A DNA stretch of 64,000 nt from Amphiscolops sp. MND2022 (lineage: Eukaryota). Below the pieces are notes generated by a model, which did no database searches, was not told the origin of the DNA, and saw only the letters and a program-made list of their open reading frames with translations. The stretch is from assembly GCA_964187785.1 (NCBI GenBank), contig OZ076409.1, forward strand, positions 25,484,001 through 25,548,000, in the 5' to 3' direction. Made by a program: the position numbers and the translations under genes. This document shows, one piece after another, positions 18,001 to 51,000 of the stretch (positions are counted from its first letter, which is position 1; each line of letters opens with the position of its first letter).

Positions 18001-21000
18001 TTTCAGCGAACGAGTCAATTCGCCGGTCCGCTAATTTGTAATATAGATATTTTCAATTAGCAAAAAGCGGTTTCGAGCCATGAGGGCCCCATTTATCGGC
18101 ACTTTTAGAATTATGACAGCTTTAGCAGTAATTTTAATGTTCTCGTTTGCATTTTCTTTGAATCTTGTGAAGCCACTACTCTGTGCAAAGCAGAGGGTGT
18201 GAAGTTTTTCCAATGGATTTAGTAATACTACAGTATTGATTCCAAAAGATGTACCTTATTGATATTATTGAAAGCAACAAAAGGCAAATCTCAAAACCGA
18301 ACATCTCAAAAACGGCAGAAACGAGTGATTTTTTGGAAAATGGTAAACATAAAAGTTTCTTAGATTTTTATCTAGTTTACAAGTTTGTCTGTATGACAAT
18401 TATGCGATAGAAAATGTAGGCCAATTTTAGCCAAATTTATGTCAAAATTCAAAAAAATTTTTCTAAATTAGTGGAAAATTTCATGTTCAATGGACCCCTT
18501 GATTTTACTGAAGCCCTTGATATGTTTTGATTCATAAACTTTTCTGTAATCGTTGAAAAAATACGCTGTAAATATAGGCTTCTCCGAAAATACATGTATC
18601 AAGATACAATTTTGAAATTTAACAACTTAAAACAAGCTCATACTGATACAATTTACAATATTTCAGAGAAAAAATACATTGTCAGATTCGATGTTCGGGA
18701 GAATTTTCAATTCATAACTATTTTGATATCAAAAAAGTGTAAATGGGTCAAAAGTTCAAAAAACATATGAAACGATGTTATGGAAAGTGCTCTCGACCAA
18801 TGAAATGAGCGCGTGAGAACTTAATCAACCAATGGGATTTATTTATTTGCTCTCTTTCTGAATGCTATGTTGCTTTTATTATTTTCCGTCCATATTTCAT
18901 ATGGAAAAGGAAAATATTTAAATCAAACGGTTTTTCTACAAAATTTGCCAAGAATTAAATTATATCCTAGAAAAACGGTTTCACCCATAGAATTCAACTG
19001 ATGTGAAATTAGTATCATGCGGTATGAATTTGTCGAGGTTTTTGGACTTTTTTAATTGATCCAAAGACACCAGAATGACCCAAAATTGACGCCAAAAATA
19101 GTAAAAGCAGCAAACGTTTCCAATTTCATGCAATTTTTGTCAAATTATTGATAAATTTCCTGGCTTTGAATGTTGAGAACAATCCAAAGAGAAAACAATT
19201 GTTATCAAAGAGGCTTTTTCAAAAAAATTAATGCAATTTTTAATGAAAAAATGCCTCAAATTTAGACGCAAATTGACAAAAATACCCGAGAATTCAGAAT
19301 TTTGAAGATTTTATGCAATTTTTGTCAGTTTTTCGAAAAACTTAGTGGCTTAGAATGTCAAAGATGTTAAACAAGGAAAAGATTCGCTGTCTGGGAGGCT
19401 TCCTTGAAGAGATAAAAGCAATTTGTGTCAAAAAAATGCATCAAATTTGGACCGAAATTGACAAAATACTTGAAAATTCAGATTTTTGAAAATTTTATGC
19501 AGTTTTTGTGTACTTTTCGAAAAACTTGGCGACTTAGAATGTTGAAGACGTTCAAAAAGGAACAAATAAGTTGTCGTGGAGGCTTCTTTCAGGAGATAAA
19601 AGCAATTGGTGTTGGAAAAAAGCATCAAATTCAGACCGAAATTGACAAAAATACCAAAAAAAATCAAATTTTGAAAACTTTATGCAGTCTTTGTGTAATT
19701 TTGGAAAACCTTGGTGACTTAGAATTTCAAAGACGTTCAACAAGGAACAAAGTGGTTGCCAGGAAGGCTTTTTAAAGGAATTTAACGAAGTTTTGTATTA
19801 GAAAAACGCACAATTTGCGACCAAAAATGACAATAACTTGAAAACGTACCGATTTTTCACGTTTTCATGCAACGTTTGTCAAATTTCTAAAGATTTCATG
19901 GATCCGAACGTTGGATACTTTCAACCATGAATGATTTCGTTCTCCAATAGGGTTATTTGCGGAGATAAATGCAGTTTTATAAAAAAAGAATTGCCACATG
20001 GACCCCAAAATAGTCAAAAAATACTACTTTCTGTTGCAACCTTTTCATGGATTAGAACTCTGAAACGATTCAACAATAACTGAAGGCGTTGTCCGGTTGG
20101 CTTTTTCATAGGATAAGTGCCAGTTTCTGGTAACAAACGTGCTTTAATTTGAATCAAAAAATGTCGAAAACTCCACAAATTTCCAGCTTATGTAGGTTCT
20201 TCATGTTATTTGGGTACAATTTTCTAGAATTTGTTGAGTTAGATGGTTCAAAACAATCAAAGGTGATAAAATCAGGTATGTAGTTTCCCTTCTTAATGAG
20301 AAAATTACAGTGCTTTACATCAGAAATACTTCAAATTTGTAATTTTTCCTGCAGTTTGTTTTCAAATTTTGAAAGTTTTTGTGACTAGGAAAGTTCAAAA
20401 CACTCGAAAACGAAAAAGTTAGCTATGCAGTACGCTATTTTGAAGAGAGCTGCAGTATTTTGCTTTCAAAGTGACCTTGATGAGTCGGAAATAAAAAGTC
20501 TAAATTCAACGCTTCTTAAGCAAAGTTCTGTATTTTTTGAGACGTTTCCATCGTTGGAAGACAGAAAAGCTCCAACAGCGAACGAATGCGTTACTCAGTA
20601 GGTTTTTTGAAGGTGAATTGCAGTTTCACGTTAGAAAAGAGCCTCAAAAACAAGTTTTGGCAGTTGTTCGACAATTTAGTGAATTTCTTTTGAAAGTTAC
20701 CAAAACTTCTTAATAGTCCAGTAGTCTAACTTTTTGGAGTAGGCATGCAGAATTTTTGAAGAAGAAATCTACAATTGTGTATGCAAAAAGTTCGTCAGAA
20801 CGACTTGAAATTTAGTGAAAATCAATTTTTTGTTTTTGAAATGTTGATATACTTTTTTGTAAACGTTTCGAGCAATTTTGGTATTCAAGAACGACTGGAC
20901 CCGTTATCCAATAGCCGTTTTTGAAAAGTCATCTACAGTTTCTTATAAAAGTTCCTCAAACGACCGCAAAGTTGTCGAAAAAGCAAAATTGTAGAAATTT

Positions 21001-24000
21001 TGACGTTTTTGCCGACTTCGCGCAAATTTAAAGAAAAATCAATTGGTTAGGTTTTGGAATACACACAATCTGACGAAAAACCAAATAGGTGTGTGGTGTC
21101 TTCTTGAAGTGTTCCCTTCTGAAATGGCATGACATTATTCAAAAATTGTCAAACTTTTTTTCATCAAACCTCTATGCGTTTTCATAGTGCAATAGCTACT
21201 CTTGAGTCTCAAAAATATGTCATTGCTGGAGCAGTTGGGACGGAAAATATCCTGCTGGTCAGCGGGCGTCTTGTTAACATGACTATTTGAGTGTTACGAA
21301 TGTCCTGCAATTTTTACGCGCCCTCGTAGCTTGACTACATTAAATAGTCGACCGTGACTTCTCTACCTGAGTGTGTATTCATATCTGGTTTCAAATCAAC
21401 AGATTATCGGTTAATTCATTCATAAAATGTGTTCATAACTCATTTTTCAACTGTTTTTTTTGTAGTGATGAAAAGTCGTTTTGCGCACCTGTTGATGACA
21501 CTGCCATGTCTTTCCCATGCACACACACTCACTGCACTCCCGTCTGATGACGTCACCTTTGGTGTACTCAAGTCCATCTGCGATGCAGGAGCACTGGTCT
21601 GGGTACACACACATGTTGCTCAGGGGGTACTTCAACACCATCCCCGTGGGACATACACACGCACCAGGCACTATTCCTGCAGAAAAGTAACAAGTAAATC
21701 AGAAAGAACTGGGCTCTGCAATATTTGTATATAAGGATGTAAAAAGGAGAGATTTATTGAATGAAATTGTTTTCATTCAGCAATAATTTAAGGAAACGTG
21801 AAACGTTTAAATTGGCCCGGAATCAATGTTTTGGCATTGGCGCCACTATAGTCACTCAGTTGAATACGTTATTAGTTTTTGCTCTCAATGATCTTCAGGA
21901 AGTGCAACGGAGTTATTATGCCAAACTTTGAATTCAGACAAAGAAATGAATTCGGTCTGAATTCAGTACAATTTGAAATGAGAAACTGAATGTCGAAATC
22001 AATTATCATTTTTATCTTCCGATGTATGAATTTATTACTTTGGAAGGGCCCAAATTTTCACCAAAATTCTGTTGATATGGAATATTCAACAGATTTCAAC
22101 AATTTCAAGATTTGGGCATTTTTTCGTTTAATGTGACTGAGGAAAATTTGAGAAAAAATATCATTTATATTTTTCAATTTTTGTCAGTCACATTAAACGA
22201 AAAAATGGCCAAATCTTGAAATGATTAGTTGTTTCTGTCAGATCTCAGACTCACAAATGATGCTCCCCTTGTAAAAATACTATTCGGATGGTAAGTTGAT
22301 ACGCACCATGTGGACAGACATGATCGTCAGGTGTGGTGCATGTATCGATGCAAGGAGACACGTTCTCCTTGAAGACCAAGTTGCCTGGACACTCGGAGGT
22401 ACAGGGGGGCTCCTCAATCTGACACTCGAACAGACCATTGGTGCAGGTGCTGGAACAACATACAGTATGTCTGTCTGCTCCACTCATTATCTGGGCTTGA
22501 AACAGCACTGGTCTGTTGTTTTTTGGAACACATTTCACTCACTTTTACAGCTAAATCTTGATTTGAGATTCTCAGTCTGTTGGAAAACCCTTCAATTTCA
22601 ACTAAACAAAACTTAACAAAACAATTTTAGAAGAGGTTTGTAAACTTTATGCATATTTTTTATCATTTTCAGCTGAACGTTCCAAATTTGTAAGAGTTAT
22701 TGTTAAATAATGCCTTTTCTTACAAGTTCTTGGCAAATTATTTGTGACAATTTTGCAAAACATGTAAACTTTTCCAGAAAGGGTTGTAAGTATAAACATG
22801 CAAGATTGAGCTGATGTTTTTCCCAGTGTAAAATATCTTGAAACTCGTGCCAAGAAAGTCTTTTCCTGCAAGTTCCCGTTACCTCTTCAAACCCTTGATA
22901 AGATCTTGAATTATTCTTGGACAGTTAAAAAACTTTTCTCCTTGAACCGTTAAGACTCTTATCAAGAAGTTCAAGAGGTGGAAAATTCGAATTCATCGTT
23001 CGGGCATGAAATTTGCACGTGTCACATTTTAGTACATTAGAACTGTAAATAAATCTTCTCTTACAGGGTTACCTCAATGACCCGGGTAGTATTAAGGACG
23101 CTTTTTGGCACCGCTTTTCCTGAAGCCACTGAATAGGTAGGATGATTTCATGAAGTTTTGGTTAGATTGTCATGATTTCTAGATGAAAATGGCCCAAATT
23201 TGGAGACTTTGGTGAAATAAGATCTAAAAACACTATTTTACTGGAATAAGGCCTGAAATCACTGTATTTTGGTAGAATGAGGTCTGAAAACACTGTATTT
23301 TACTGGAATAACGTCTAAAACCCCCGTATTTTGGTAGAATAGCATCTAAAATCACTATTTTGGTAGAATAGCATCTAAAATCACTTTTTTGAAAATAGCG
23401 TCTAAAATCACTTGTCTTGGGAATAATCTTCTTGGGAAAATTACTACTTCTGTGGAATAACGTCCAAAACCACTATACTTGGTAGAATAAGAACTAACAA
23501 GAGGGGAACGTCTAAAGTCCGAAAGTCTGCGCTTTATCTCAGGCTCAAAAAGATCGATCATACGCCTCCTCCTCAATAGAACGCGAATTGGATATAACTC
23601 TCTTCGGATAAACGTCAAAAGTTCGGATACAGCGCTTTACTCCAGAAACTAAGTCAAAATTTTGAAAGTATTGAAAAAAGTCATTTGTGGGTATGTTTTG
23701 AGAAAACCTAATTCCCTACTAAAAAGAGAATAATAATACAGTCTCATAGTGCCAAAACATGTTAAAAGGAGACCTTTTGGGCTTTATGAAACTCCTGTTT
23801 GTTGTAAAATATTGAAAAGTTTGAAGTGGACCTTTTAGAGACAAAAAATGCTAATAAAAGTTGCACAGTGCCGAAAAAATTCAAGGGGGGACCCTACAAT
23901 CTTGTCCCGTTTTGCATCTTAAGTTAAAAATGGAATAAATGAAAGGGGACCCTTAGCACTTACTTACATGCGTTTCCGCTTGTTGCTCCAATAGTTTAGT

Positions 24001-27000
24001 AGTTCTGGAAAAAGTGTCCACTACGCATACATTCTGTTATCTGACGAAAAAAAATTTAAAAGTTGCCACTGTTTCACTCGCGCCTATTTTCTACTAAAAT
24101 GCGCCGAATAAAAAGACTGTATTTTACTGGAATAACGTCTAAAACCCCCGTATTTTGGTAGAATAGCATCTAAAATCACTATTTTGGTCGAATAGCATCT
24201 AAAATCACTTTTTTGAAAATAGCGTCTAAAATCACTTGTCTTGGGAATAATCTTCTTGGGAAAATTACTACTTCTGTGGAATAACGTCCAAAATCACTAT
24301 ACTTGGTAGAATAAGAACTAACAAGAGGGGAACGTCTAAAGTCCGAAAGTCTGCGCTTTATCTCAGGCTCAAAAAGATCGATCATACGCCTCCTCCTCAA
24401 TAGAACGCGAATTGGATATAACTCTCTTCGGATAAACGTCAAAAGTTCGGATACAGCGCTTTACTCCAGAAACTAAGTCAAAATTTTGAAAGTATTGAAA
24501 AAAGTCATTTGTGGGTATGTTTTGAGAAAACCTAATTCCCTACTAAAAAGAGAATAATAATACAGTCTCATAGTGCCAAAACATGTTAAAAGGAGACCTT
24601 TTGGGCTTTATGAAACTCCTGTTTGTTGTAAAATATTGAAAAGTTTGAAGTGGACCTTTTAGAGACAAAAAATGCTAATAAAAGTTGCACAGTGCCGAAA
24701 AAATTCAAGGGGGGACCCTACAATCTTGTCCCGTTTTGCATCTTAAGTTAAAAATGGAATAAATGAAAGGGGACCCTTAGCACTTACTTACATGCGTTTC
24801 CGCTTGTTGCTCCAATAGTTTAGTAGTTCTGGAAAAAGTGTCCACTACGCATACATTCTGTTATCTGACGAAAAAAATTTAAAAGTTGCCACTGTTTCAC
24901 TCGCGCCTATTTTCTACTAAAATGCGCCGAATAAAAAGACTGTATTTTACTGGAATAACGTTTGTTTCAAAAATAATGTATTCAAAAAGGTTTTTTGTTT
25001 TGCTTCAGTAGAAAAACCCTCGTGTTGGTCTTGATTTCTTGAAGTGCAATTCCTTGCGGTAGTGTTAGTTTTTGGCAGGTTTTTCAGCTGATTTGTTTCT
25101 CTATTTTCAATTTGAAGTCTTTCTTTGTTTAGAGTTTTGGGAATTTTTATGCGTTTTTAGCGATGTCTTTTTACGTGGGAACCTTCGGAGGCCACGCTCT
25201 TGTCGTGGGTCCTGTCACGTGGAATCGAAAAGATTCCACTAGATTCCACTAGCGGAGAGGCTCCGAACTTAATATAATAAGGAACGTGGTTCGTACTAAA
25301 AACCCTTTTTGTGCGTTTTTTTTCGGTTGACAAAAAATCAAGTCCTCGGCAAGATCTTGCAAGATGGAACATATTCTTGGCGCTCTTGGTAAGAATCTTG
25401 GCAAGATTCTTACCAAGGGTTTCAGAGATTTGCAAGATTCTTGGCAAGAGTTTCAAGATGTTTTACACTGTGTGAAGAAAGGAGTATAGGCTACAGTTGT
25501 TATGTAACAATACAATTATTGCGTAATCATCATTCTCACCATCTCATACACCCTTCTTGGAACACATCTCCGTTCAATGTTACATTCTCGAGATGGTAGC
25601 AGTCACAAGATGACTCATCTACACACTCGTTGCGGGTTTCATCCCAGATAGTGTCACCCGGACATGAGCACCCAGCGATGTACCTGTCAGTACATTGGAG
25701 ACCTGCCATTGAGAAGCGCGACCGCTGTCTACAACTGTAGTGACAGAAGGGAGACTTCTCAGTGTACGACATCTCGTCATTGGGGCAACTTTGACCGCCT
25801 ACAGAAACAGGTATCAAAACTTTTTATGAATATCCAAACAGCAAAATTTGTTCTTAAAGTCAAAAGAAAGTTTTTGAAATCGATTTAGTGTCTCTCAATA
25901 CAAAATTTCAAGAAAACACTGGAAACGATGAGCGAGACAACAGAACTTTAATTATTTCCCAAAACATGTCGAACAATCAAGCACATTGTCAATTTATACA
26001 GTGAAGCAAAACAACTTTTGAAACGAAATGGGGAAAATAAAGGTGTTGAACAGTTCCCCCTACAAAGAAGGTTGATGACTCATCAGAGAAGCACAGCAGT
26101 CAGTTATCATGAATGAGTATTGAAGGACGAAAAAGGCCCAAAACCAGAAACAAACTAGTGCAAAAGAAAAACTATGATACGACACGTTACGGCATTACAG
26201 TGCCAAAAGTGGGTTAGCACATTTTTGTGCTATTAAGTTACTGAAATCCACTGGCATACATTTAAACATATAAATCACTAAATCACTTATTTTCACTGGA
26301 TTCCGTTGTGGCCTGTTTTGGATTCCACTAACATATGTAGCTAGTGAACAAAAATGCGTGCACCGGAATCCACTGCTTTTCACTGCCAGCTGAATTGAAC
26401 CAATCGCGTCAGCTTATTTCAATTTTCAGCGGAATCCGCTAAAAATTACAGTAGATTCCACCTTGGCTTACAGTGGATTCCACTTTGGCTTGCAACCGAA
26501 TCAATTTTGGCGCACAACCGATTCAACTTTTTAACTTGTGGAATCGAATGTAAAAAGAGCGGAATCGACAGTAAGCCAAAATGAAATCCATTACGCGGTA
26601 AGAAGGGTTTCGTAATCAACTCAAATCTTATAAAATCCAGATTTGAGCGCTCAAAGCCACTGCAGCGATCATTGAGCGTTTAGTGGAATCCACTGCAGCG
26701 TCTAATGGAATCCACTGCAAGATTCGCATGTTTTGGTTGTGGAATGCACGCAGTGAAATCCGCTGAAAAGAAATGTGCCAAAAGGTGAAATCGACCGCTA
26801 CGTAATAGCATTTGTCAGTGGATTACAGCCTTCCGAAACAGCTGTTCACCGAATTACACTGCAAAAACTCAAAATACCCACGTTTTGCACTGTAATGGGT
26901 GATGATTAAAGAAAAACAAGGCGAGAGGTTCTTCAAATGGTCGCAAAAAACTGGACACTAGTGAGATCCGAACTTCATTATCCTTCTTTGAAAGCAAGCA

Positions 27001-30000
27001 TTTTAACCACCAGGCCAACTGGAGTCTCGAGGCCAACTTTCCGATCAGCAGCCGCCTTATTCAATTTGTCGCGTTCGAGTCTGTCAGTAGTGAATGTGAA
27101 GTAATTAAACACAAACGTCAGTTTAAATTTAAAAAAAAAACGAAAATATGGATATCGAAAACCACTGTATAGTAAACCCACTCGGCGTATTTGCGTTGAA
27201 AGTGTCTTTCAATGCAATCGGTCGGGCAAAGTTGCTGGTTAACGAGGCAAGATCAAGGTTTGATTAAGTGGTATACGTCTTGTTCTTCTATGAAAATTCA
27301 TGTATAACTTCAAATTGTCAAACAAACAAGATGCTCCAGACAAGACACCATGGGTGGGAAAACAGTGTTTTATAGTCAAGTGGCAAAAGTACTACAGGAA
27401 CAATTGCGGCACCAAATGAAGTAAGAGACACAGTTATTTTTGATAATCGAAAAACAGTTTTATTCAAGTTAAACGTCAAAACCACAGAACATAAAGGAAA
27501 CAGTTCCGATTCAATTCGCAAATTAACGAAAGTCTCAAACGAGGATCCTCTAAGCTCGCCTTGGAATATCAAAATCTTTGAAAAGTGTTCTTCTGTTTAA
27601 AAACCTTTGGAAAAAGGCCAGAAAACAAAGCTTTTGGTCCAGCACGGGACTCGTACCCAGGTACCCGCAAAGAAACTCACTCGCCACTCCAATAATCTCG
27701 CTTTGAACTCTAGGCCAAATGAAAAGGACTTTTCAGTGCATCTTGTAGCTAATGGCACATTTCGGTGAAAGCTTCTATCAAATTTTCGTTCTAAATCTAA
27801 AATTTTTCGTTACTTCTGAAGAAAGTGGAAAATACCAAAAGGATTTATAAAATCTTGGAATGAACAATTAGAATATCTGTAAAGGCACCCTCTGAGACAG
27901 CAAAATCAGTCGACATTGGAATTTTGGAATTGTGACATGTTCAGAAATTTTGTCAAAAATTCTAATTCGATGTTTGACGTGGCACTGAGCATGTGATTGC
28001 TCTTTTCGCTGTTTCAACGAAATTGGCAGGTACTTCGACAACAAAGAGCAAGATCGAGAAAAAACATAAGGCCAGCCGCCCGAACAGACGCCAGAGACTG
28101 CAAAAACCTCTGAAATTAGACTTTTTCGAAGGTGCTAACCTTGATTTCAGCAGTATGCTACCTTAAGTAGCGAAAACCGTAAAAATGAGTCTTTTCGTCT
28201 AATTCTCAAATCTGTGCCTGTGGTGACCCAGCTTGCGAGCTGAATGTGGATGTTGCCAAATCGCTGTTGTGGACGAGATTGCTGCATATTGTTGTAAGTT
28301 TATGGCTATTTTGACAATTTTAGATCTTATTTCGTAATTTTAGATACTGCCAAGTCACCCTGAATAACGAAAATTTAACATAATTTCCTTTTGGAACGTT
28401 TTTAAAGGCTGTCTAAGTGTTGGTTTCGAAGAAAAAGCGTAATGCGCACTACTGATAGCAATTACAGACTGGATCAGGCCGGCGAGCACTTCACAAGAAG
28501 CGGAATCCTCCTCTGACGGGACAGTTTTTACCCGAAAGAGGCAAAATGAGCTCATGGTCATGGGCGCCTGTCCCGGGCAAATACCCATATCATGTGTTCC
28601 TCTAACTCTTATGGTTACGGCGACAATGGTGAGAGCTTGTCGTCACATAGAGACATCATTTTTTGGCGACCACAGAGGGATCGCTTCGAAGTGCTTCCCT
28701 TAATGGTTTTAAAAGAGCCGACCCTCTGGTGATTGACGCCAAGTACGACCTGGCTCTGGTTGGAGAAGTATACGCAGAGTTTTCCTTCATTTTTTAAAGT
28801 TTGATGTATTGACAGGTTTACTGTGGCAGGTTTTCTGTCCGTTTTTCAGGTGACTTTCCCAAGTACCGATGGTTTATTAGTAAACGGTATTTGTTGACAG
28901 GTATCGTCTAAAATTGCAAGGTTCCCATCAGCGGGTCCTCTTTTTAGAAGCGTAGTGGACAGTAGCACGTCGCTACTGGTGTTTAACAGGTTTTCTAGCT
29001 GTTTTCAGTGATTTGCGCTTATGTACGAGAGGTGAAATTGATGGTTGAACCATGTTCCATCCGATTGATAGATGAGCTGAAACGAGTGTTCCCGACTCTC
29101 CTTTCCCATTTCTCGTGGAGACGTCCTAGAGGGATGGTTTTCGGTGAATAGGTAGAACAAGTGCTGACGTTGCCGACGGTCCCAACCGTTTCTCTCTAGC
29201 TGGTCTGGGTGTTGAGAAAAAAGTCGGCGAAGGTACCACCCCTCAGTCCAGAAGTATCAATTTTTCGGAGTATGGTATGAAAAAATTTTTCGATTGTGTA
29301 ATTTTTGAAGGGGAATCGTTTGCTCATGCTAGTTTTTCCTTGTTGCAACTTAGTGTGTGCTTTTGCAGCCGTTTTCAGTGAGAAAAGTCCGATTTTGGGT
29401 GCAAAAGTAGCAAAAACGTCAATTTTGGCATTTTTGAGTGTTTTTCTTGGTACGAGCGCGAGCGCTCGAGGTATTAGTCACAACAGTTGCAAAAATGTAT
29501 GGGAAGTAGCCCAAGACCTCTAGGGTACTATTACATGATGTATTGTCCACCAGAAAAGGCGTTGGAGTCCCTTTTTGGACGCATTTTGTATGAAAAAACT
29601 CGATTTTTGGCGAAATTGGCAAAAAACCACTATCAAATGCTACCTGAAGAATGCTGGATAGCACTGCAATCGCCTCTTCTGTGCTGCTAAAAGCTTGGGG
29701 CACCTTCCACGGCACAGAAATTAACGTTTGAGTAGGTTTTTTACGTTTTCATAACAGAAAAAATTTGAAAAACCTTGATTTTTGGCCAGTTTCAGGAGTG
29801 CCAGAGTGCATAATTAAAACCTCTAGGGCACTTAGTGTTTTCGAGTCCTGGGAGCCTAAGCGCTCTCATTTTCTGTTTATGTAATAAAATTAACGCATTG
29901 TGGTGAAAACCGCACGCAAAAATTCCTTTTCAGTGCTGAGAAAAGTTGAAAAACGTTGATTTTTAGTCTGTTTCAGGAGTGTCTCAGTACACAAATAAAA

Positions 30001-33000
30001 CCCCCTGGGCACTCTGTGTTTTTGTTAGCTAAGAGCTTTCGAGCTCTCATTTTCTGTTTTTACAATAAAAATAACGCATTGTGGTGAAAACCGCACGCAA
30101 AAATTCCTTTTCAGTGCTGAGAAAAGTTGAAAAACGTTGATTTTTAGTCTGTTTCAGGAGTGTCTCAGTACACAATTAAAACCCCCTGGGCACTCTGTGT
30201 TTTTGTTAGCTAGGAGCCTATGCGCTCTCATTTCCTGTTTTTCTATAAAAAATAACGTGTAGTGGTGAAAACCGCACGTAAAAACTCCCATTCAGTGCTG
30301 AGAAAAGTGGAAAAACGCACTGAATTTGATCAATTTTCCACAAAACCGGACTGTCTCTGAGCTAGGGTCGGGTCATCGATTCCTGAACCCTAGCCAAAAA
30401 GTGGTTGCATTTTCGTAACTACCACTAAAATTAACGTTAGTGCCGAAAATTTGGTGAGCGTATCGGTCACCAAAGTCGAGAAAAGCTCTCTGACGTTTCG
30501 ACTTCGGAGAAGCGTAAGAGGACCGAAAAAATCCAAAACTGCAAGACTGTCAGTGCCTTATACCTAATGGGCACCACCAATTGAGGGTTGATCCCAGTGC
30601 TACGGATAGCGAGGCAACACGTTGATCCCATTTTGCCCGCCGTATCACTTTCTGAGGTGATCCTCTTGGTCAATTTGTGAAAAAAGTTGTCAAAAACAGT
30701 GTTTTTTCGAGTGCAAAGTCCATCTTGGGTCGAAACCTTAAATAAGCGCTCGCGCTTCAATTCGACCATATCAGTGGCATTGTAGGTGCCCACTGGCATA
30801 GACTACCAAGTTTAGTGCCAATCTGCGTGATACTTGTCGAGAAAAAGGGAAAAACGTGGCACCCAAAAAGGTGCGCAAAAAGGCAGTTTTTTCTTAATTT
30901 TTCCAAGTAACCCGGGCACCTTAGCCGACGGGTGGGGCTATATTACACCCCATCATAGTAACCTGTGCTAGTTTCTACGTTGTTGCAGAGATTTTGAGCT
31001 TCCTAGCTCTTTCCAGTTGACCGTAGTCTTGAAAAAGACGTGAAAAACAGTGTATTTCGGTACATAGTGGTACCGCACGTCTGTACCTAGGTGAAACTGT
31101 GTAGAAGCGGCGCAGCTCAAAACTGTTTTCTCTTTCGCAAACCTACGTGTACTTAGGATTTGCTGGTCTTTTTTGGGCTTGATACGGCGCTTCCAGCACA
31201 CACACGAGCCTCTTGAGTGTTGTGGTGCGATTTTTGGAAAATCCAAAAATTCTTTGAAATTCTTCCTGTGGGTGACTGGAGACTTTTTGCCCTAAACCAG
31301 GTTAATTTTCTGGCCCAGTGTTCTTGTGGGAAAGCGCTGTGCAAATTTGAACAGCCTACGAGCCTTAGAACGTGTTTTGAAAAATCTTGGACGTTGAAAA
31401 ACATCAATTTTCTTAAGTCTTCACCGAGACGAGCAGAGGTCCAAATCCTTGAGGAGACCCCCTACAAGCCTACCAGCGTCTGTTTCACTATTCTTACAGC
31501 GTGGTTGGTGCCCACTGGCAGCGCCTGCCAAGTTTGGGATCAATTGGTACTGTATCTGTTGAGAAATTGACTAAAACGAACTACACAAGAAGGTGCGCAA
31601 GAAGGCGAATTCTACGAAGTCTTGTGGGATTGCCTGAACACCCTATTCAAAGAATTCGGCCAAATTGCTGCCCACTATCGTAACCAGTGCAAGTTTATCG
31701 TATTGTTGCCGAAAAACGAGCGTGAGCGCTCTTTCCAGTTCGCCAGAATCTGGGTTGACACGTGAAAAACAGTACATCTTGGAACACAGTGATACCGAAC
31801 GTCTGTACTGTGTTGAAACTTCACCTAGTCATCTCAGCACAAATCAGCTAATATTCCCGTGTACCTCAACTTACGTGGGATTGTGTGGTTGATTTTGAAG
31901 TCGATCCTGCGTTTCTAGCGTTAGCGCTAGCCACTTGAGTTTTTCTCAAGTGAATCTGAAAAACCCAAAAGATATCTGAAAAACCTCTGACTTGTGACTG
32001 GATCCCAGGACCCAATTCTGGACTCACTTACTGGGTCAGTGCATCAATCCAGAAGTGTTGTATACTTTTCAGCACGCTACAACCCTTGAAACTAATTTCG
32101 ACTCCTCTTGGACGTGCATATTCATTGTTTCAGTTCAAGGGTCCACCGAGACGAAAACTAGGAAAGTGGGAAAAAAGTCATTTCTGCGTGTTGGAAACCT
32201 GTAGAAACCCCTAGTTTGACCTCCCAGTAGTTCATTCATTGCTGTGCGTTTGATATTTGATCAGTATCGAGTGGGCTGCCTTGCTATATCATAGCATTTT
32301 GTTACTTGAAGTGTGATATCCTGTGTATTGTAACGAATTGGATCATTTTTTGGAACTGTCGGCGCACCTGCTCGGAAAGTTGGGATTACATTGCCCTGGA
32401 CTATTCTTATTGGTGTCAGTTGGTGCACCGTTACCGAAAAAGTGAGCTTGAGAGCTCAGCACTGTGGACTAGAGTCTTTGGTTGCACGTGAAAAACCGAG
32501 TCAATTGAGATACGGTGATACGGCAAGCCTGTACAGCATCTGCAACTCATTCAACAGTCTGAGCCCCAATTGCTTCTCGTTACAGTGTACCTGGCTATAC
32601 GTGGGGCCGCTTGGCCAATTTTGAGCCCGATCTTACGTTTCCAGTCTTGGTACGAGCCACTTGAGTAATTTTCTAAAGATTTTGAATTTTTCAAAAATTG
32701 TTAAAAAACACTCTAGCTTGTAGCTGGAAGTAATTATCAGCCTCGGTAAGTCCTCTTTCCAACTTTTGTAACTGAAGAAACGTGCTGTGCAATTTTCTAC
32801 CTAGTACGTCTGATAAAACTGATTTTGACTGTGCCCAGGCACGCATTTTGGCCGAAATTCCGAAAAACCGTAAAAAAAAACAAAACAGAAAAACTCAGTA
32901 CTCCCACTATACGGAAGGCAGAGACCAAAAGCCTTCATTTTCTAACCAAAGGGACCTAGAAGGCCTTCCTGGGTGCAAACGAGGCAAATCCCACGGTTCA

Positions 33001-36000
33001 AAAAAATTGCCGGCAGGGGTCATAAATTTTGGACTCCTCTGAGACTTTGAAATTTGCTGCTGAAAAGCCCAATTCAGCAATTTCAAGTGCCTGCGACGAA
33101 CTCTGGACTACATTTTCCCAACCGAAAACCTGTATATATTACGCTGTGAGCCTGAGCAGGGTTTTCGATATCCAAAGGAGACCCTGAGGATTCCCACTTA
33201 GTCAAAATTACGAGATTTTGAGAGGAGCAACCTTCTAGTGACACTATTTTGACCGGCTTGCCCGAGTGTGAAGCCTTTGTGAACACTCTGGTTCCTCTAT
33301 TTGGTGTTATTCAGCAGTATCGAGTAGCACAAGCACCGAATATCACGTCAAATTTGCAGAGAACTCTTTTGGGTAATCACAATATACCCGAATCCATCGA
33401 GGTTGAGAGGTCACTAAACCACTCGACTGTCTTTTTGGTGCGCACTATCCAACTTGGCTGCAACAATTTGCTCGAGAACAACATCTTTTGGCCCACTGAG
33501 CAGCTTGCAAAGCGTTGAACAGTTTTCAGTCAGCTGTGATTGCTAGAACTTCCCTTGACTTTGACCCTGACACTTAATTTGGATACACAGGTGGTTCTAG
33601 TGAAGCAGTTCGGAATCTCGAAAGCTGAAATGAAACGTTGGAAAGTCTTCCACCGCCTGCGTTCCTTTTTCAAAGGAAAAGAGGGTGTCAATGCAGCACA
33701 ACCAATTAATGTTCATGATGTTCAAACTCAAAATGAATCCCCAATGGTAGATGAACATGACCGATCGACGAAGTTAGAGGATTTGAAGTTGGAAGATTGG
33801 CCTTTGGAGGATCGTTTCAAACTTTTCTCCGATTTTCTAGACTCAATGCCATCTAAAACTCAGGATACCGAACCGGAGATTAGCATAAAGACTTCCAGTC
33901 CTAGTTCAGTATCGTCGTCGAAAGGTTTCCCTCTCCATGAAACCAGTATTCAGACTTATCAGAAACAGGATCAACAATTAGACGCCCTGGAGCAGCAGAT
34001 GGATGAATTATCAATCTTGTTGGCACAAAATGAGATACGTAGGAAGAAATTGTTAGCACGAGTGCTAGCACAAATGCAGTCGATAAATGCAGATGTGCAA
34101 ATACACCTCAGAAGTGCCACTATCAATATTTCAAACGACGCCGAAGCAGAACCAATGACACAGCCAACAAAAGACATGGGGCTGGAACCAATATCTTTGG
34201 ACACCACAACCATGAGTATTGCTGACACTTTGCCTGAATATCACGCCGGTGACAATGGGTTGCTCGAGAGCAACCTCTACTCAAGTGATACAAAAAATGA
34301 ACGAATATCAGTCTCACCCTCCCTTTCCTTATCGCAGGATTCTGTAAGCAACTCTCACTTCCTTGGAACAAATTCCCTATTACTCACTTCGCAGTTGCTG
34401 CCGAGTTTGCTGACAAATTCTATTGAGCCAACTTCTGCTGAACGTGGTCTACAGGATTATATTCAGGTGGACCAGCCAATCTTTATCAAATGGTTGCATA
34501 GTGGTTCAACCAAACCTCGACCGACTGGACATAGACGTGGTCGACCACCGCGGACTTCTGGTGAACTCTCATGGTATGAAGTTCTGCTCTCGTTTCATCA
34601 TAGACGTCGCCGCGGCCGTCCACCACGCTCAGTCTTCCTACTACCATGGTCGCATCGACCGAAGGGACATAGGCGTGGCCGACCTCCGAACAATTATCAC
34701 AGTCTTGAGACAGACCCAGCCCCAGTTTTCTTTATTGGAAGTCCTGATATTTCATGCTTTTTGTATGGCCTGCTGCTATCGAATAATAATGCCTATCCAC
34801 AACCCGAGCTACACTCCATTTCTTTTCAAGGGGGGAGGAGGTGTCATCAAAGCTCAACTTATCATTCTGCAATTTTTGTGTCGGGCATTCAAGTTTGTCT
34901 ATTCCTCGCTATCCTCATATGAAAAAGACTGCTCATCGATTAAGGCCTGAGGAGTCGACTAAAGTCCGGGGAGTCCCATGGAGAGACAACACTCTATTCT
35001 CTACATTCCACGCTGACCACCCACGGAATTTGCCACAATCTAAAGTGATGAAATCCTGACCGCACATTACTTTCAATCGATTCTGATGTATACAATCACA
35101 GCTTGATATAAAAACTTTGTTTTTTTTTTGTTTCTCGTAAAATTTTATTTGATATAACATTTTCAAGGCTATCCGCGAGGCTTAACAAAAAAACAAAAAA
35201 AAACAAAAAAAAACAAAAAAAAGAAACATAAAAGTCCTCGTCAGTGCAACTTTGGCCAGATGCTTTTTCTTATAGTTTCTTCTTTAATTTCATTATCTCT
35301 ATAGTTATACTCCTTGAAGTTTCAATGTTAATTTTCTTTTGATTCAGTGGCTTTTCTACAGAAAAACTAGTTTAATGGAGCTCATTAGCCCCGAAATTTT
35401 CAATTACAGAATCTTGTCTATTTTTGTCTCAGTGCTAAATCTCACATGCAGTCAGTTGGTAAATCGCTTTTCATACTCTCAACGGATGCTACTGATTTTT
35501 GTTTTGTTATGGAGCTCCACATCAGTGCGTGCTGCCCAAACCTAGCCAAACCTTGAACAAAAAATATCAGAAACTACCTGTTTTCCTTTTAAACAGTGGT
35601 TTTTCCGCTGAAAAGAAGTTTTACTGAAAACAAGTTTTAACTGTTCTGCAAACTGAATTTTTACTGGCGTAAAAAAAAGTTTTAAAAAAAACGCGCCAGG
35701 GAGCCCCAGGGCTTCAAAAAAATTTCTTAAACCACATAAACATCAGTGCTATCAAGATCCTATCCAAATTTAGTACAAAAAACTTTGCCAATTGAATGAT
35801 GCTCTCAGATTGATATATAGATTAAAGATTATGATTTGTTTGATGGTGCATTTTGAGTGCTCGTTTTCTAGCCCCAGGGCTTGCTCCAGTAACAGCAGCC
35901 AGTGAATAAAGCAGGCTCGATAGATCGCAAGAAACAAAACCTCAATATTGCCCCAAACAGCAAAAGATGATTGTGACACAACTCCGATGCAAAATCACCA

Positions 36001-39000
36001 GTTTGAACTCCCACTCGATTTCAATGATGATGTGGAGATGTTTCAATGCCAGCTTCTCCGCATGACAGGGACGTCATGCATAAAGTCCGGGGAGTATGTA
36101 ATGGCACCCTCTGAGACAGCAAAATCAGTCGACATTGGAATTTTGGAATTGTGACATGTTCAGAAATTTTGTCAAAAATTCTAATTCGATGTTTGACGTG
36201 GCACTGAGCATGTGATTGCTCTTTTCGCTGTTTCAACGAAATTGGCAGGTACTTCGACAACAAAGAGCAAGATCGAGAAAAAACATAAGGCCAGCCGCCC
36301 GAACAGACGCCAGAGACTGCAAAAACCTCTGAAATTAGACTCTTTCGAAGGTGCTAACCTTGATTTCAGCAGTATGCTACCTTAAGTAGCGAAAACCGTA
36401 AAAATGAGTCTTTTCGTCTAATTCTCAAATCTGTGCCTGTGGTGCCCCAGCTTGCGAGCTGAATGTGGATGTTGCCAAATCGCTGTTGTGGACGAGATTG
36501 CTGCATATTGTTGTAAGTTTATGGCTATTTTGACAATTTTAGATCTTATTTCGTAATTTTAGATACTGCCAAGTCACCCTGAATAACGAAAATTTAACAT
36601 AATTTCCTTTTGGAACGTTTTTAATGGCTGTCTAAGTGTTGGTTTCGAAGAAAAAGCGTAATGCGCACTACTGATAGCAATTACAGACTGGATCAGGCCG
36701 GCGAGCACTTCACAAGAAGCGGAATCCTCCTCTGACGGGACAGTTTTTACCCGAAAGAGGCAAAATGAGCTCATGGTCATGGGCGCCTGTCCCGGGCAAA
36801 TACCCATATCATGTGTTCCTCTAACTCTTATGGTTACGGCGACAATGGTGAGAGCTTGTCGTCACAATCGAAGCAGCAAATCTGTCTTTGAATGTGTGAT
36901 GAGGAATGAGAATTTGGAGCACGTTATCAAAACCAGTGAGATCGTATACAAAGACACATTTGCAGAAGCATAATTTACTATATGGAAGCTATACATGTTT
37001 AAACCACGCACTTGCCTTTTAGGACCCCTTAAAGTTTGATGGTCGAACTATTTAGAATTTTGCTTTTATGTTTTGATATTTTCATTATTTTCCGCCATAT
37101 TCCGTATTGAAAAGGAACATAACTAATTCCTTTTACCAAAATTTATCATGTTCCAAATTCATCTCCAAAAAGAAGGACTTCACCAATGGAACTCGACTGA
37201 AATAGTTGTTTTCGTGCGATACGTATTTGTAGAGATTTTGGAATTTTTTGGTTGACCCCAAATCGACTTCAAAATGGCCTAAAATGACCCCAAAAACAAA
37301 AAATATCCAAATTGTATCAATTTTGTGCTGTTTTTGAGAAATTTTTCGAAAATTGCGTGGGTTTTAAACGTTGGAAACGTTTAAAAACGAATTTACGCAT
37401 TTCGAGGATTTTCGAGTGTTACAAGGCTCAAACCGTTCAACGCCGAAACAACTAGCTTTAAGGACATTTTTTTGAAGAGGAAATTTCAGTATTTGGCTGC
37501 GACAACACCTCAGGGTTACCCCAGAAAAATCAGTAAATTCCAATTTCTGCCATTTTTGAGGACGTTTTGTGCAAAACTAGAAAAAGTTCAAAGATTAGAA
37601 GGTTCAAAAAGCTCCAGAAGAAAAACAGCTACGCAGTACGCTTTCGAAAGAGAACTTAACCGTTTCTGGTAGCCAAAACCTCAGAAGATCCCGAAACAGT
37701 CAAAGAATCCAAAGTTGTTCTTTCTACGATTTGGCGTTTTATGCAACTTTTTAAAATTTAAAAGATTTTTTGTGTCATAATGGTGAAAACGTTCAACAAC
37801 CACTAAACTTTGCATGCAGTCTGCTTTTTTGAAGAAAATCGACAATTGTGTGTTGAAAATGTACCCCAAATTGATCTCGAAATGATCGAAAAACTAAAAA
37901 AAATCATGTGTTGATAAACAAAAATACCAAAAGTTTCCAATAGGTGACTTTTTCAAACTTCGTAAACATTGATAGATATTGTGCGAGTTAGATTATTCGA
38001 AAAGTTCAACCACAATTGAACTAGTTATCCGGAACGGTTTCGTGAAAAGATATTTGTAATTTCGTGTTTGCAGAGTGCGTCAAATACACGCCCGTTTGTT
38101 TTGAAATATTACTCTCAATTTTTGATAATTCATAAGTTTTTCGTTGATAAAGTCTTTCCTTGACCTGATGGTTGAAACTTTGGGCATTTTCATTGCACTG
38201 TTTAGAAAAGTAGGATTTTTGTTAGAAAACTTTCGTGAAAGTGACAACAAAAAACTCAAAATTTTTGGATAATTCCCAGTTTTGATAACGTAGTCCCAAT
38301 TTCGGCCAACTTTAGAAAGTTTCCCTAAATCAGAAATGAAGCAGGCTGTACGTACAATTCCTTTTTTCCAATCGTTTTGCTAAGCCTTATTTATTGTTTC
38401 AAGGATTCGGTAGATATAAAAATTCGAAGAGTTTGAAGACGCATTATTTAAATTTTCAGCTTACTTTCACAAAAACAAATCGTTTCTGCTTTTCTGTCAC
38501 GAAATCCCCAGGAAGAGTAAACAAGCCGGGAACGGCCCAAGTCGACGCCATATCCAAGGCTCAAAAATAGCAAAAGGACTTCGAAGTGTCAAGTATTCTC
38601 TCCTACAGTACCCGCATGAGGAAAAAATTGAAAAAAAATATCGATTTTTTTTCAAAGTTTTTTTTTGGTCCGGTAAGTCGCATAGTGGCGAAAAATGTAA
38701 AAGGGGACCTCAAAAAAGCCTAATTAACCTCTATCGCAAGTGCCAGTAGAAGTAGTGTGGCATTTAGTGTTAGTTCAAGTCAGCTTATAAAGCTTATAAA
38801 ATCTGCCACTTCGTTGGTCTTTTAAAAAAAGTCACTGCAATAGTCTGCGTTTTCTACGAAAAGCGCCGACTAAAAAAGTTAGAACTCGGTAGTTTGGATT
38901 TTGTGCCAGCGTTTACGGCGTGTTTGTGATTTTTAAACAACTTTTTGCTGTGATTTTCTACAGTGCTTGAAAAATCGCTGCTTAAACGCTTAGTTTAGGA

Positions 39001-48000: not shown

Positions 48001-51000
48001 TTAAATTCAATTTTGGCAACTATCCATTGACAAGTTCAAATATCTCCACAAATATCTGTTTTGCAACTAAATTTTATTGAGTGACTTCTTGGAAAGTTAT
48101 ATATAGGAAAAACAACGAATCTCGGAAGTTAATTTTCAACTTCCCATAAATGAAACATGGGCGGAAAACAATAAAAATTGAGCTCACAGTGACTTGCTTG
48201 TTCCTCCAGCTGTTGCCGAACTCTCCCTCGTATGACGCCATTTGGTTATAGGGAGTGAGGAAGTCGTTCGTGTGATCATTGTCCAAGTTGCCACAAAGAC
48301 CGCCCACCTTGGAGCACAAATCTGGCCTCTCAAAAACGTCCAGAGTCACGAAAATTATGTCATCCTGGAAGAAAAGTCAAATTAAGGACGAAATTGAAAG
48401 GCACAAGGAATCTCATATTCGACTAAGGTTTGAAACAAAAGAACCCCTAGCTTTTACAATGTTTTTGTTTCATAGAAAGTTTAGTCTATGCTATCTCCAA
48501 GTGATTCAAAACTATTTCATTTCGATCATTGAAAATGGTAACACTGTAGCTCACAAAACTTATGATGAACATCATAAAAAGGTAGATGAAATTCTGTGAA
48601 ACCTTTGCTTTCACAAAAAACGGTCTTTTTCAGTTGCTCGAAGACAATTTTACTTTGAAAGCTACCATAATCAATCAAAGCACTACAATTGCTTGTCACC
48701 CAAGCAGGTTTTCTGAGTTAAAAATACGTAAATGTTGGAACTGTCTGTTCTGCTATTTTAACGCCCAAATTTGGTCATTTGGAAGTAGAAGAATTAGAAG
48801 AATATTGTTTTTAAAAATTGAACATATCCCGATAAAATGTTAACATGATGTAGTTGGAAATAATCAGGCTTCAAATTATTTTTGAGTTTGACAAAGTTCA
48901 AATTTCTTTGTCCAATGATCTGAAATATCTGGAATATGCATAATAGAATTGTAGAACAACGTGAATTTCATAAAGTCAAAAGCCTAATAATTGTACAAAT
49001 TTTTAGAAGGATTTGGGCGTGGGGCCGTTTTGATGGTATCTCCACCTATGACTCATATTTATAAGGGTTAAAAACCAACCGGGCTCCATTTGATCTGCAG
49101 TCCAAGGATCTCCATGTTGAAGTACATGAAGGTGCCTCTCCTGGACACTTGACCCCCTGTTCTGAAGATGTACTCTGTTCTGCTCGGAGTGTGGGTGAAG
49201 TCTGCCTCGAAGAATTTATCCCCGTACATATACACGATGACGTAATAGCCTTGCATGCGCATCTCTATGCCATCGTACATGTTAATGATAATTCTCTGGA
49301 AACAAAACTCCCATTTCAGACAATAAACCCAGAAAAGGAGAGATAATTTTGCGACATAAATTCACCCAATTTTTAGAATTTTGACGTCCCATTTCTACCA
49401 TTTGCAATTAAAAAAATCAATCCTATCAAAAAATTGAAATTTCATTTTTCCTTCCACATACCCATGTCAGAGACACATATTTTTGTAATTCAGATGGACA
49501 GAATAGGTTCTTTTGAAAAATGCATCGGTTATATAGGGCGAACATTGGAAAAAAGCGCTAAAACCATAAGTTTGAACTTTTTACATTTATGAGGCTGCAA
49601 ATTTAACAAGCTGATTTCAAGTCAAGATCAAGTACATGGAAAAAAACGATTCTTCAAAGACAGAAGAGATTATTATTTCTTTGATTCATTGCCTTTAAGT
49701 AAATTGTTTTTCTTTCTTTTTTAGATGGACATTTGTTTCTGTTACCGTTTAACAAGTCGGACACGGCCCAAGTCGGCGCCCCGTTCAAGAGTTCAAAACA
49801 GTAATGTTTTTAAGTATGCAAAAGGATAATATATTTGTGCTACAAAATACTCGAAGGGATACGCATAAGACTAAGAAACCACTTTTTCCCCAACTGGAAG
49901 CAACAAAAAACATCTTTTGCAACAAAAACAAAAGCAAGAAAAAAATCTAACTTTTATCTTTCGGAATGTGACATGAATACAGTTGAAGGTCAATAAAAAC
50001 GCAATGTTACATAATTCTTACTTACTCTACGACCTTTTATGTTAATTACATAACATACCTGCTAGTAACTTTAATGTCATCTGTAGTACGATATAGTGGA
50101 CACTATAACTTAATCTTACGTACAATACAGTATTACATTCCCAAACTTTTTATTCCATTGGTATACAACATGGCGCAGTCAGAATGAGTCAAAAGAACGA
50201 AAACAACTCCGCGGAATCCAATAGCAGAAACTCTTCAAGTGAAGAATCTGGAGACAAAAAAGGACGGACAACAACACACCAAAAAATAACACTACCAATA
50301 TTCGAGAAGAAAACCATACAAGAAGCGAAGCTATGGTGGCGACGATTTACTCAGTATGTCAAAATGACCCAGAAAATAGACTTGAATACAATGACAACAG
50401 ACTTCCAATATTGGAAGAATATCGAGAAGAACTGGAGATAAAAATAAAAGACATTTTTATCTGGGCATTGGGAGAAGAAGCCGTTACAGAAATGACAAAA
50501 ACGGTGAGAGACAACGACCCAAACAAAATGAACATCAACCAACTCTACATATTATTCCGCCTCCACTTCATACCAGAAAGAAACAAATTCCACAGCCGGG
50601 CAGATTTTTTCGGAATAACGAGAGAACCGAATGAGACGGCTGAAGACGTTTGGACACGAATATTGCAGACCGAGAAAAACTGCGAATTTGACAACGTTAC
50701 CCCAGCCGAACTTATTGCATCAAAATTCCTATCTTTAATCGGGAGATCAACGGGAGACTACGAACTCAAAAAGAAAATCCGGAAAAGTAACATGACCATT
50801 GAAACGATAACCGATCTGATACATGAATATATGTATGACCGGTTAAACGACTCAAACAATTCCAATGACGGAGGGAACATAAAACATGTACAAGAAAGGC
50901 CGAAAAAAAGAAAATGGTCAGAGAAGACCAGTTACGACAAAAACAAAAAACGACCGGAGTATCAAAAACCAAGATACAAAGATAACCGGTGCGGACAATG

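Follow-up and report, generated by a model that had tools for sequence, protein, structure and literature searches.

The 64-kb stretch of DNA analysed here, which we call the window, contains, within an intron of an animal gene, an LTR retrotransposon of recent origin, an 8,989-bp non-autonomous Gypsy-type element with 99.5% identical LTRs, and the sole long ORF of this element encodes a 430-aa protein in which a Gag N-terminal extension is followed by a segment of probable integrase C-terminal tail origin and by three RRGRPP motifs (nt 34533-34688, + strand). Comparison of homologues places the motifs and most of the ORF under purifying selection, and we consider the combination of a Gag and tail origin with selection to be likely. 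A nucleic-acid-binding role for the protein is plausible, and the reading that we tentatively favour, at a probability of roughly 45%, is that it would act as an adaptor, the motifs gripping the element's own RNA while the Gag-derived helix joins the particles of autonomous relatives. LTR elements of the non-autonomous kind are commonly regarded either as passengers that code for nothing or as bearers of an entire Gag; a high-copy animal family that keeps, under selection, a new chimeric protein without capsid or enzyme is a testable case of competition for helper particles.

The element was classed as a non-autonomous LTR retrotransposon on its TG...CA LTRs, its PBS-like and PPT-like sites (Table 1) and its lack of Pol enzymes, and its Ty3/Gypsy ancestry on relatives that combine the PR-RT-RH-IN order with a Gypsy-type capsid. 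The initial annotation had spoken of an element and of a 181-bp repeat, and both exist. No Pfam match to a capsid, CCHC knuckle, protease, RT, RNase H or integrase core was obtained in the element, tblastn of 105 Gag/Pol proteins against it returned nothing significant beyond the ORF, an Rfam scan of it gave no match, and no tRNA gene was found in the 64-kb window. As for a canonical target-site duplication of 4-6 bp, only ATC (3 nt) flanks both ends, in a single copy whose ends may have recombined or been altered. The 4,982 nt between the 5' LTR and the ORF include, besides the three 181-bp repeats, degenerate repeats of about 720 bp (30782-31098/31504-31820 and 31705-31950/32430-32678). An exact 15-nt copy of the PPT-like tract lies inside the element at 34960-34974, and a purine tract followed by TGTCA occurs at either end of the ORF (33668-33690 and 34822-34848). 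These two sites may be former LTR junctions, the tract at 33668 also belonging to the conserved Gag start.

Table 1. Features of the element, given in positions of the window
Feature	Position	Strand	Remarks
5' LTR, 770 bp, TGT...ACA	27878..28647	+	direct repeat, 4 differences from 3' LTR
PBS-like site, begins TGGCG	28664..28681	+	seen in sequence, 16 nt past LTR end
three 181-bp tandem repeats in leader	29746..30317	+	A+T 0.62
ATG-free leader, 3,060 nt	30570..33629	+	stops exactly at ORF start; carries degenerate ~720-bp repeats
single ORF, 430 aa	33630..34922	+	ATG at 33630; frame open from 33540
Gag N-terminal extension, aa 1-~228	33630..34313	+	comprises a basic, amphipathic first helix, a part that is acidic and disordered, and the long helix
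predicted long helix, likely coiled coil, aa 102-162	33933..34115	+	AlphaFold2; best heptad register 62% hydrophobic
segment of likely integrase C-terminal tail origin, aa 229-300	34314..34529	+	collinear with tail of Pol protein P0375
RRGRPP motif 1	34533..34550	+	RGRP kept in 90/100 copies spanning all three sites
RRGRPP motif 2	34608..34625	+	RGRP kept in 88/100; missing from some older two-motif copies
RRGRPP motif 3	34671..34688	+	DNA duplicate of motif 1; RGRP kept in 87/100
hydrophobic C-terminal helix	34860..34919	+	Kyte-Doolittle 2.15; varies among copies, without sign of selection
PPT-like purine tract	36082..36096	+	directly 5' of 3' LTR
3' LTR	36097..36866	+	770-bp direct repeat partner

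In this one copy, whose leader could be refreshed from a helper, ATG is missing from the sense strand throughout 30570-33629 (0 against 42 expected over 3,060 nt), which argues for translation of the ORF. The next-longest ATG gap of the window measures 457 nt, the antisense strand is normal, and the gap contains 512 triplets that are one change away from ATG, among which 5% neutral drift would yield about 8 ATGs. Immediately upstream (29652-30569) uORFs are limited to three short ones, of 1, 11 and 5 codons; TATAAA lies at 30244 in the third 181-bp copy, and the repeat area is a possible internal promoter region. The arrangement points to an mRNA that would start, or be spliced, near the 181-bp repeats and be scanned to 33630, and the ORF protein is likely translated. 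We found no case of a long AUG-free leader in an LTR element in the open-access literature; a 3-kb ATG-free leader is a simple sign of translation that can be scanned for in other 'non-coding' LTR elements.

The cluster of three RRGRPP motifs reported in the initial annotation, including GHRRGRPPN, is present in the translation of + strand 33540-34922, with RGRP cores starting at nt 34536, 34611 and 34674; the true spacing is 25 and 21 aa, of which the 'about 23 aa' given there is only the mean. RGRP is absent elsewhere from all six frames of the window, and at least two RGRP arose by chance in 2e-5 of 200,000 protein shuffles. The motifs had also been described as encoded by different codons, which holds for motif 2 (5 synonymous changes per 6 codons against motif 1 or 3) but not for motifs 1 and 3, which a self-comparison identifies as DNA duplicates (34517-34550 and 34655-34688, 34 nt, 85% identical); of their 11 codons, 7 are the same, 3 differ synonymously and 1 differs non-synonymously, the last outside the motif. 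This duplication indicates that the motif cluster grew locally. Within the motifs every codon difference among the three copies is synonymous, in a comparison that is anchored on the motif and partly circular. The C-terminal end of the ORF lies in the frame used in the window in 54 of the best 120 of 326 homologues, in other frames in 31, and earlier or otherwise in 35. An overlapping 178-aa frame of the + strand (34414-34950) was rejected as a gene, having no notable Pfam match and corresponding to frameshifted ends among the homologues. Database forms of the ORF with a length of 629-662 aa were likewise set aside as gene-caller artefacts: in the window that frame contains 7 stops, every one a TGA that aligns to W in P0407, P0413 and P0414. 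P0001, P0407, P0413 and P0414 appear to have been called with TGA as Trp, which produces false forms of 629-656 aa.

Residues 1-~228 are, by profile comparison, homologous to a Gag N-terminal extension: a profile of aa 1-228 built from 129 family members and run against 227 targets aligned collinearly with CCHC-bearing Gag extensions at E 1e-8 to 1e-6, the best E of the reversed control being 0.45. A hunt for longer forms of the ORF (3 proteins among 7272 candidates) led to the Gag-protease proteins P0121 and P0122, whose N-termini are 70% identical to aa 2-275 and which both continue to capsid and protease. A search with the capsid region of these two proteins collected 105 Gag/Gag-Pol proteins that carry a PNMA-like capsid (PNMA match in P0131), CCHC knuckles and the PR-RT-RH-IN order (P0402) behind N-terminal extensions reaching ~600 aa, and the best solved match of these relatives is Ty3 Gag-Pol (E 4e-92). 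In the diverged member P0291 the extension runs directly to the pre-capsid helix, the point at which the ORF of the window departs (aa ~226-230). The ORF start at 33630 agrees with the MKR-type starts of older Gag N-termini; in 30 of the best 120 homologues, which form one subfamily, Ile stands at the ancestral start Met and a Met lies eight codons upstream, which looks like start codon replacement. The heptad-like segment noticed earlier is present as well, and AlphaFold2 predicts a single helix at aa 102-162 (block pLDDT ~69-85), with the remainder disordered (mean pLDDT 44). Proteins of the P0121 type have a second Gag start after aa 275 and are best read as recombinants. Seven Gag-fused N-termini fall within one subfamily at two places of a quick tree (109 rows, SH-aLRT only), a nesting that is expected from recombination between co-packaged RNAs and thus points to contact with helpers.

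The second half of the ORF probably comes from an integrase C-terminal tail, on evidence that is suggestive and not decisive. An integrase-core probe matched 21 Pol proteins, 10 of which end too early, and RGRP follows 206-218 aa later in all 11 others. The tail motif of P0375, KRGRGRPPK, covers the whole Pfam AT_hook model at 10.4 bits, below the cut-off, and aa 228-335 of the ORF are collinear with it; a GT block common to both precedes the motif by 58 aa in the ORF and by 63 aa in P0375. With each of 9 probes, the best-scoring of 1151 Gag-Pol windows was the tail of P0375/P0379; masking the motifs left it first for 6 of these probes, with a masked score that 18 of 2000 local shuffles reached. 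No tail fell below E 1.7 when the family profile was run against 250 Gag/Pol proteins, the tail profile reached at best 8.6 bits against 10.2 on reversed sequences, the pairwise tops were 68 for tails and 60 for reversed sequences, and hhalign gave tail homology a probability of 12.6%; the integrase tails compared belong to sister lineages and not to the direct parent. Tails of this clade (P0375, P0402) resemble the ORF in carrying RGRP(P) ~60 aa past a GT-containing block and differ from it in having one RGRP or two overlapping ones, whereas the ORF has three spaced copies, and the flanking homology is weak. We also think it probable that RGRP was copied from one to two to three after an in-frame internal deletion had joined the Gag extension to the integrase tail; the older two-motif members P0348, P0345, P0338 and P0354 lack the motif 2 segment and fit such a stepwise expansion. 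We found no description of RGRP in integrase tails of this clade in the open-access literature, and its occurrence there suggests a putative targeting or nucleic-acid-binding module. In P0375 (aa ~1270-1678) and at the C-terminus of P0490, Pol extends ~470 aa beyond the RGRP tail and includes a Cys cluster; the last domain, which looks macro-domain-like, found no support in Pfam, solved structures or the protein atlas. The protein atlas gave no usable match for the ORF and one uninformative match for the P0375 tail.

According to the adaptor reading, the helix taken from Gag would associate both with itself and with the Gag of helpers, the arginine-rich motifs would bind element RNA and later perhaps cDNA, and the capsid-less protein would help the element ride on intact relatives. 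Action on the element's own RNA is favoured since selection should keep a protein in a non-autonomous element chiefly for the good of the very copy encoding it, which speaks for binding to the RNA as it is translated. As a candidate helper, the window's second Gypsy element was rejected, its RT being only ~25% identical to this clade.

A doubtful alternative, along the lines of the initial annotation, is a nuclear factor that would oligomerize on AT-rich minor grooves through three AT-hooks and activate the LTR or leader, counteract silencing, or tether cDNA to chromatin, the last of which would retain the likely integrase-tail role. AT-hooks anchor proteins to AT-rich DNA (PMC4615771); they are better known as DNA binders, which counts against the adaptor reading, and the canonical AT-hooks of HMGA1 can bind RNA, which counts for it (PMC11354804). 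The canonical core, G-R-P preceded by R, does occur three times in the ORF, the full-length alignment of the P0375 Pol motif to the AT_hook model speaks for a nuclear factor as well, and the arginine-rich clusters could, we infer, double as nuclear signals. In an AT-hook scan, however, the 72-aa module reached 6.9 bits against a cut-off of 17.4 (Pfam AT_hook, PF02178), and the whole ORF had no Pfam match at E<=1. Basic residues become few past the core: counted by the definition in PMC4615771, K/R within 1-5 aa of the core number 2, 4 and 3 before motifs 1-3 and 1, 1 and 0 after them, motif 3 thus having none after its core, and the extended AT-hook pattern of the same source, which asks for >3 K/R at a distance of 6-20 aa to either side of GRP, does not fit, with counts of 3/2, 0/5 and 3/0. 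From their sequence, the motifs may be AT-hook-like in function at best, and we do not class them as AT-hooks. HMGA is a small host chromatin protein with three AT-hooks and an acidic tail; the present protein is a 430-aa element-coded Gag derivative with only 4 acidic residues in aa 357-430. The HMGA AT-hook proteins (PMC4615771, PMC11354804) do share with the ORF arginines before the GRP core, three copies and a disordered context, but the ORF differs in its score below the Pfam cut-off, its weak basic flank after the core, its size and Gag derivation, and a binding activity that is putative. The likeness to HMGA drawn in the initial annotation accordingly shrinks to the count of three in a truncated Gag derivative. 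Its proposal that the 181-bp repeat is the target finds no footing either: the A+T content of the repeat is 0.62 against 0.63 in the flanks, and since the repeat is not richer than its surroundings nothing marks it as a target. A nuclear factor would, moreover, be diffusible and help dead copies equally, and a Gag leader is an odd vehicle for a transcription factor.

Conservation bears on a further, unlikely alternative, namely that the ORF is a passive relic whose frame, motifs and ATG-free leader were inherited from an autonomous ancestor or refreshed by recombination, the protein being of no account and only an RNA signal or the act of translation (by stabilizing or trafficking the RNA) being of use. 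The family is a large one: of 8000 candidates, 326 database proteins match at E<=1, and there are 164 representatives at E<=0.001; the best 120 of the 326 are 54-96% identical and all stand under one source label, and metagenome and viral contigs, when scanned, yielded no relative. The initial claim that the motifs are conserved at the protein level is borne out in this family, by a comparison built on protein records, which exist only for open frames. Among the best 120 of the 326 homologues, RGRP occurs three times in 71, twice in 27, once in 15 and not at all in 7, losses often being due to truncation, and the 71 with three motifs have a spacing of 25/19 (52) or 25/21 (19). All three RGRP are kept in 70 of the 100 copies that span the three sites in frame. 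In a set of 268 proteins, with frameshifted-looking stretches dropped, just 1 of the 18 motif sites carries a variant shared by several copies; outside the motifs such variants occur at 162 of 313 sites (p=1e-4 for the contrast), and at 29 of 51 if R/G/P sites alone are counted (p=2e-4). Rare variants have similar rates at motif and other sites, and the tests ignore relatedness among copies that are not independent. Among the 64 members that are less than 66% identical, agreement is 810 of 881 at motif sites and 2080 of 3398 at the other sites of the module. Over aa 1-356, which take in the Gag part, helix, tail and module, the substitutions that copies share are more conservative than the rare ones (p=1e-8); the predicted helix taken separately gives p=6e-5, and no signal of selection was detected beyond aa 357 (p=0.25). 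A relic would be consistent with the variable frame of both ORF ends among copies, with a protein that is mostly predicted to be disordered, with the bias of database proteins towards open frames, and with contigs from one sequencing run, in which 6 of the 23 differences listed are synonymous, at the neutral rate of 0.23; that run contained 0.10 of the words and yielded five 151-nt pieces, and the differences come from a few low-depth contigs of unknown age. It does not account for motif sites that are far more conserved than other R/G/P sites, for differences among the three motif copies that are synonymous within the motifs, or for the conservative shared substitutions.

It is improbable that the protein works by interference, a truncated Gag poisoning or diverting helper particle assembly in the manner of Ty1 p22 and thereby favouring the family or limiting its copy number. 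Truncated Gag proteins can act trans-dominantly (PMC4599808), and the Gag helix is under selection, but interference leaves the triplication and conservation of the motifs unexplained, and the family has hundreds of distinct copies and needs helpers. Ty1 p22 resembles the ORF product as a truncated, element-encoded Gag and differs in being the C-terminal half, made from an autonomous element and restricting its transposition, whereas the ORF encodes the N-terminal extension and belongs to a separate amplified family (PMC4599808).

The initial annotation had further proposed that the protein stands in for a nucleocapsid. A retroelement nucleocapsid is recognized by a CCHC knuckle after the capsid, and the ORF has neither; for the element's own Gag the proposal falls, the capsid being absent, and it is possible in trans, where the nearest Gag-Pol is without knuckles. 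A split Gag of this kind, in which the protein would supply in trans the nucleic-acid binding lost by a knuckle-less Gag-Pol partner with the same N-terminal extension, is very unlikely as the main role: the knuckle is indeed found in 0 of 15 P0121-like Gags against 89 of 93 in other lineages, and P0121-like N-termini are 92-96% identical to motif-bearing members and have no RGRP, but the knuckle-less forms are few, recombinant-like and confined to one subfamily other than that of the window, and lineages whose knuckles are intact are plentiful (clusters of 575, 336 and 267 members) and could be the helpers. There is a slim chance of a two-part Gypsy system, made up of a knuckle-less capsid and enzyme element and of one that encodes only the shared Gag coiled coil with three AT-hook-like motifs recruited from integrase; on co-assembly these motifs would replace the nucleocapsid, and the small protein would be translated by scanning along the 3-kb AUG-free leader. 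The knuckle-less Gag-Pol lineage with the doubled Gag start consists of P0121-P0129, P0220, P0421, P0449, P0453, P0456 and P0458.

Among known systems, the closest in layout are the TR-GAGs of plants, which are non-autonomous LTR elements with a PBS, a PPT, one Gag-derived ORF and no Pol enzymes, and are apparently still mobile (PMC4350172). They are <4 kb long, have a 5-bp TSD and encode a Gag precursor with a GAG domain (PMC4350172), whereas the element of the window is a 9.0-kb animal element without capsid, knuckle or canonical TSD and with a likely integrase-tail segment and three RRGRPP motifs; on its size and the absence of a capsid, it is not a TR-GAG. LARDs and other long non-autonomous LTR elements (PMC13570524) share with it a long interior, tandem repeats, modular reshuffling and template switching with relatives, and retain at most fragmented coding remnants, in contrast to one selected ORF behind an ATG-free leader. 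A search of the open-access literature, with most subscription papers and repeat-database entries outside its scope, produced no account of a protein in which a Gag extension lacking the capsid is joined to RGRP repeats. LINE-1 ORF1p combines a coiled coil with folded RNA-binding domains, acts on its own RNA and belongs to non-LTR elements; its likeness to the ORF product is a functional analogy only, and homology is not expected.

Around the element, a large minus-strand gene with exons at 2558-57205 encodes VWD, C8, TIL and LDLa domains, as found in a scan of 132 of the 160 flanking frames. We presume this architecture to be SCO-spondin-like, which makes the host an animal, and both LTR elements of the window lie antisense between its exons. 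The second, unrelated Gypsy element (~49967-55936, + strand) has ~210-bp LTRs, a 5-bp TSD (CGGAA), and a coding part broken into four frame pieces for gag-protease, RT-RNase H and integrase; a 352-aa piece lies between RNase H and integrase. A near-perfect tandem duplication of 852 bp (99.5%) at 23287-24961 is either recent or an assembly artefact, and a 184-bp tandem array at 19122-19976 has a period near that of the element's 181-bp repeat, with no match between the two in a self-comparison.
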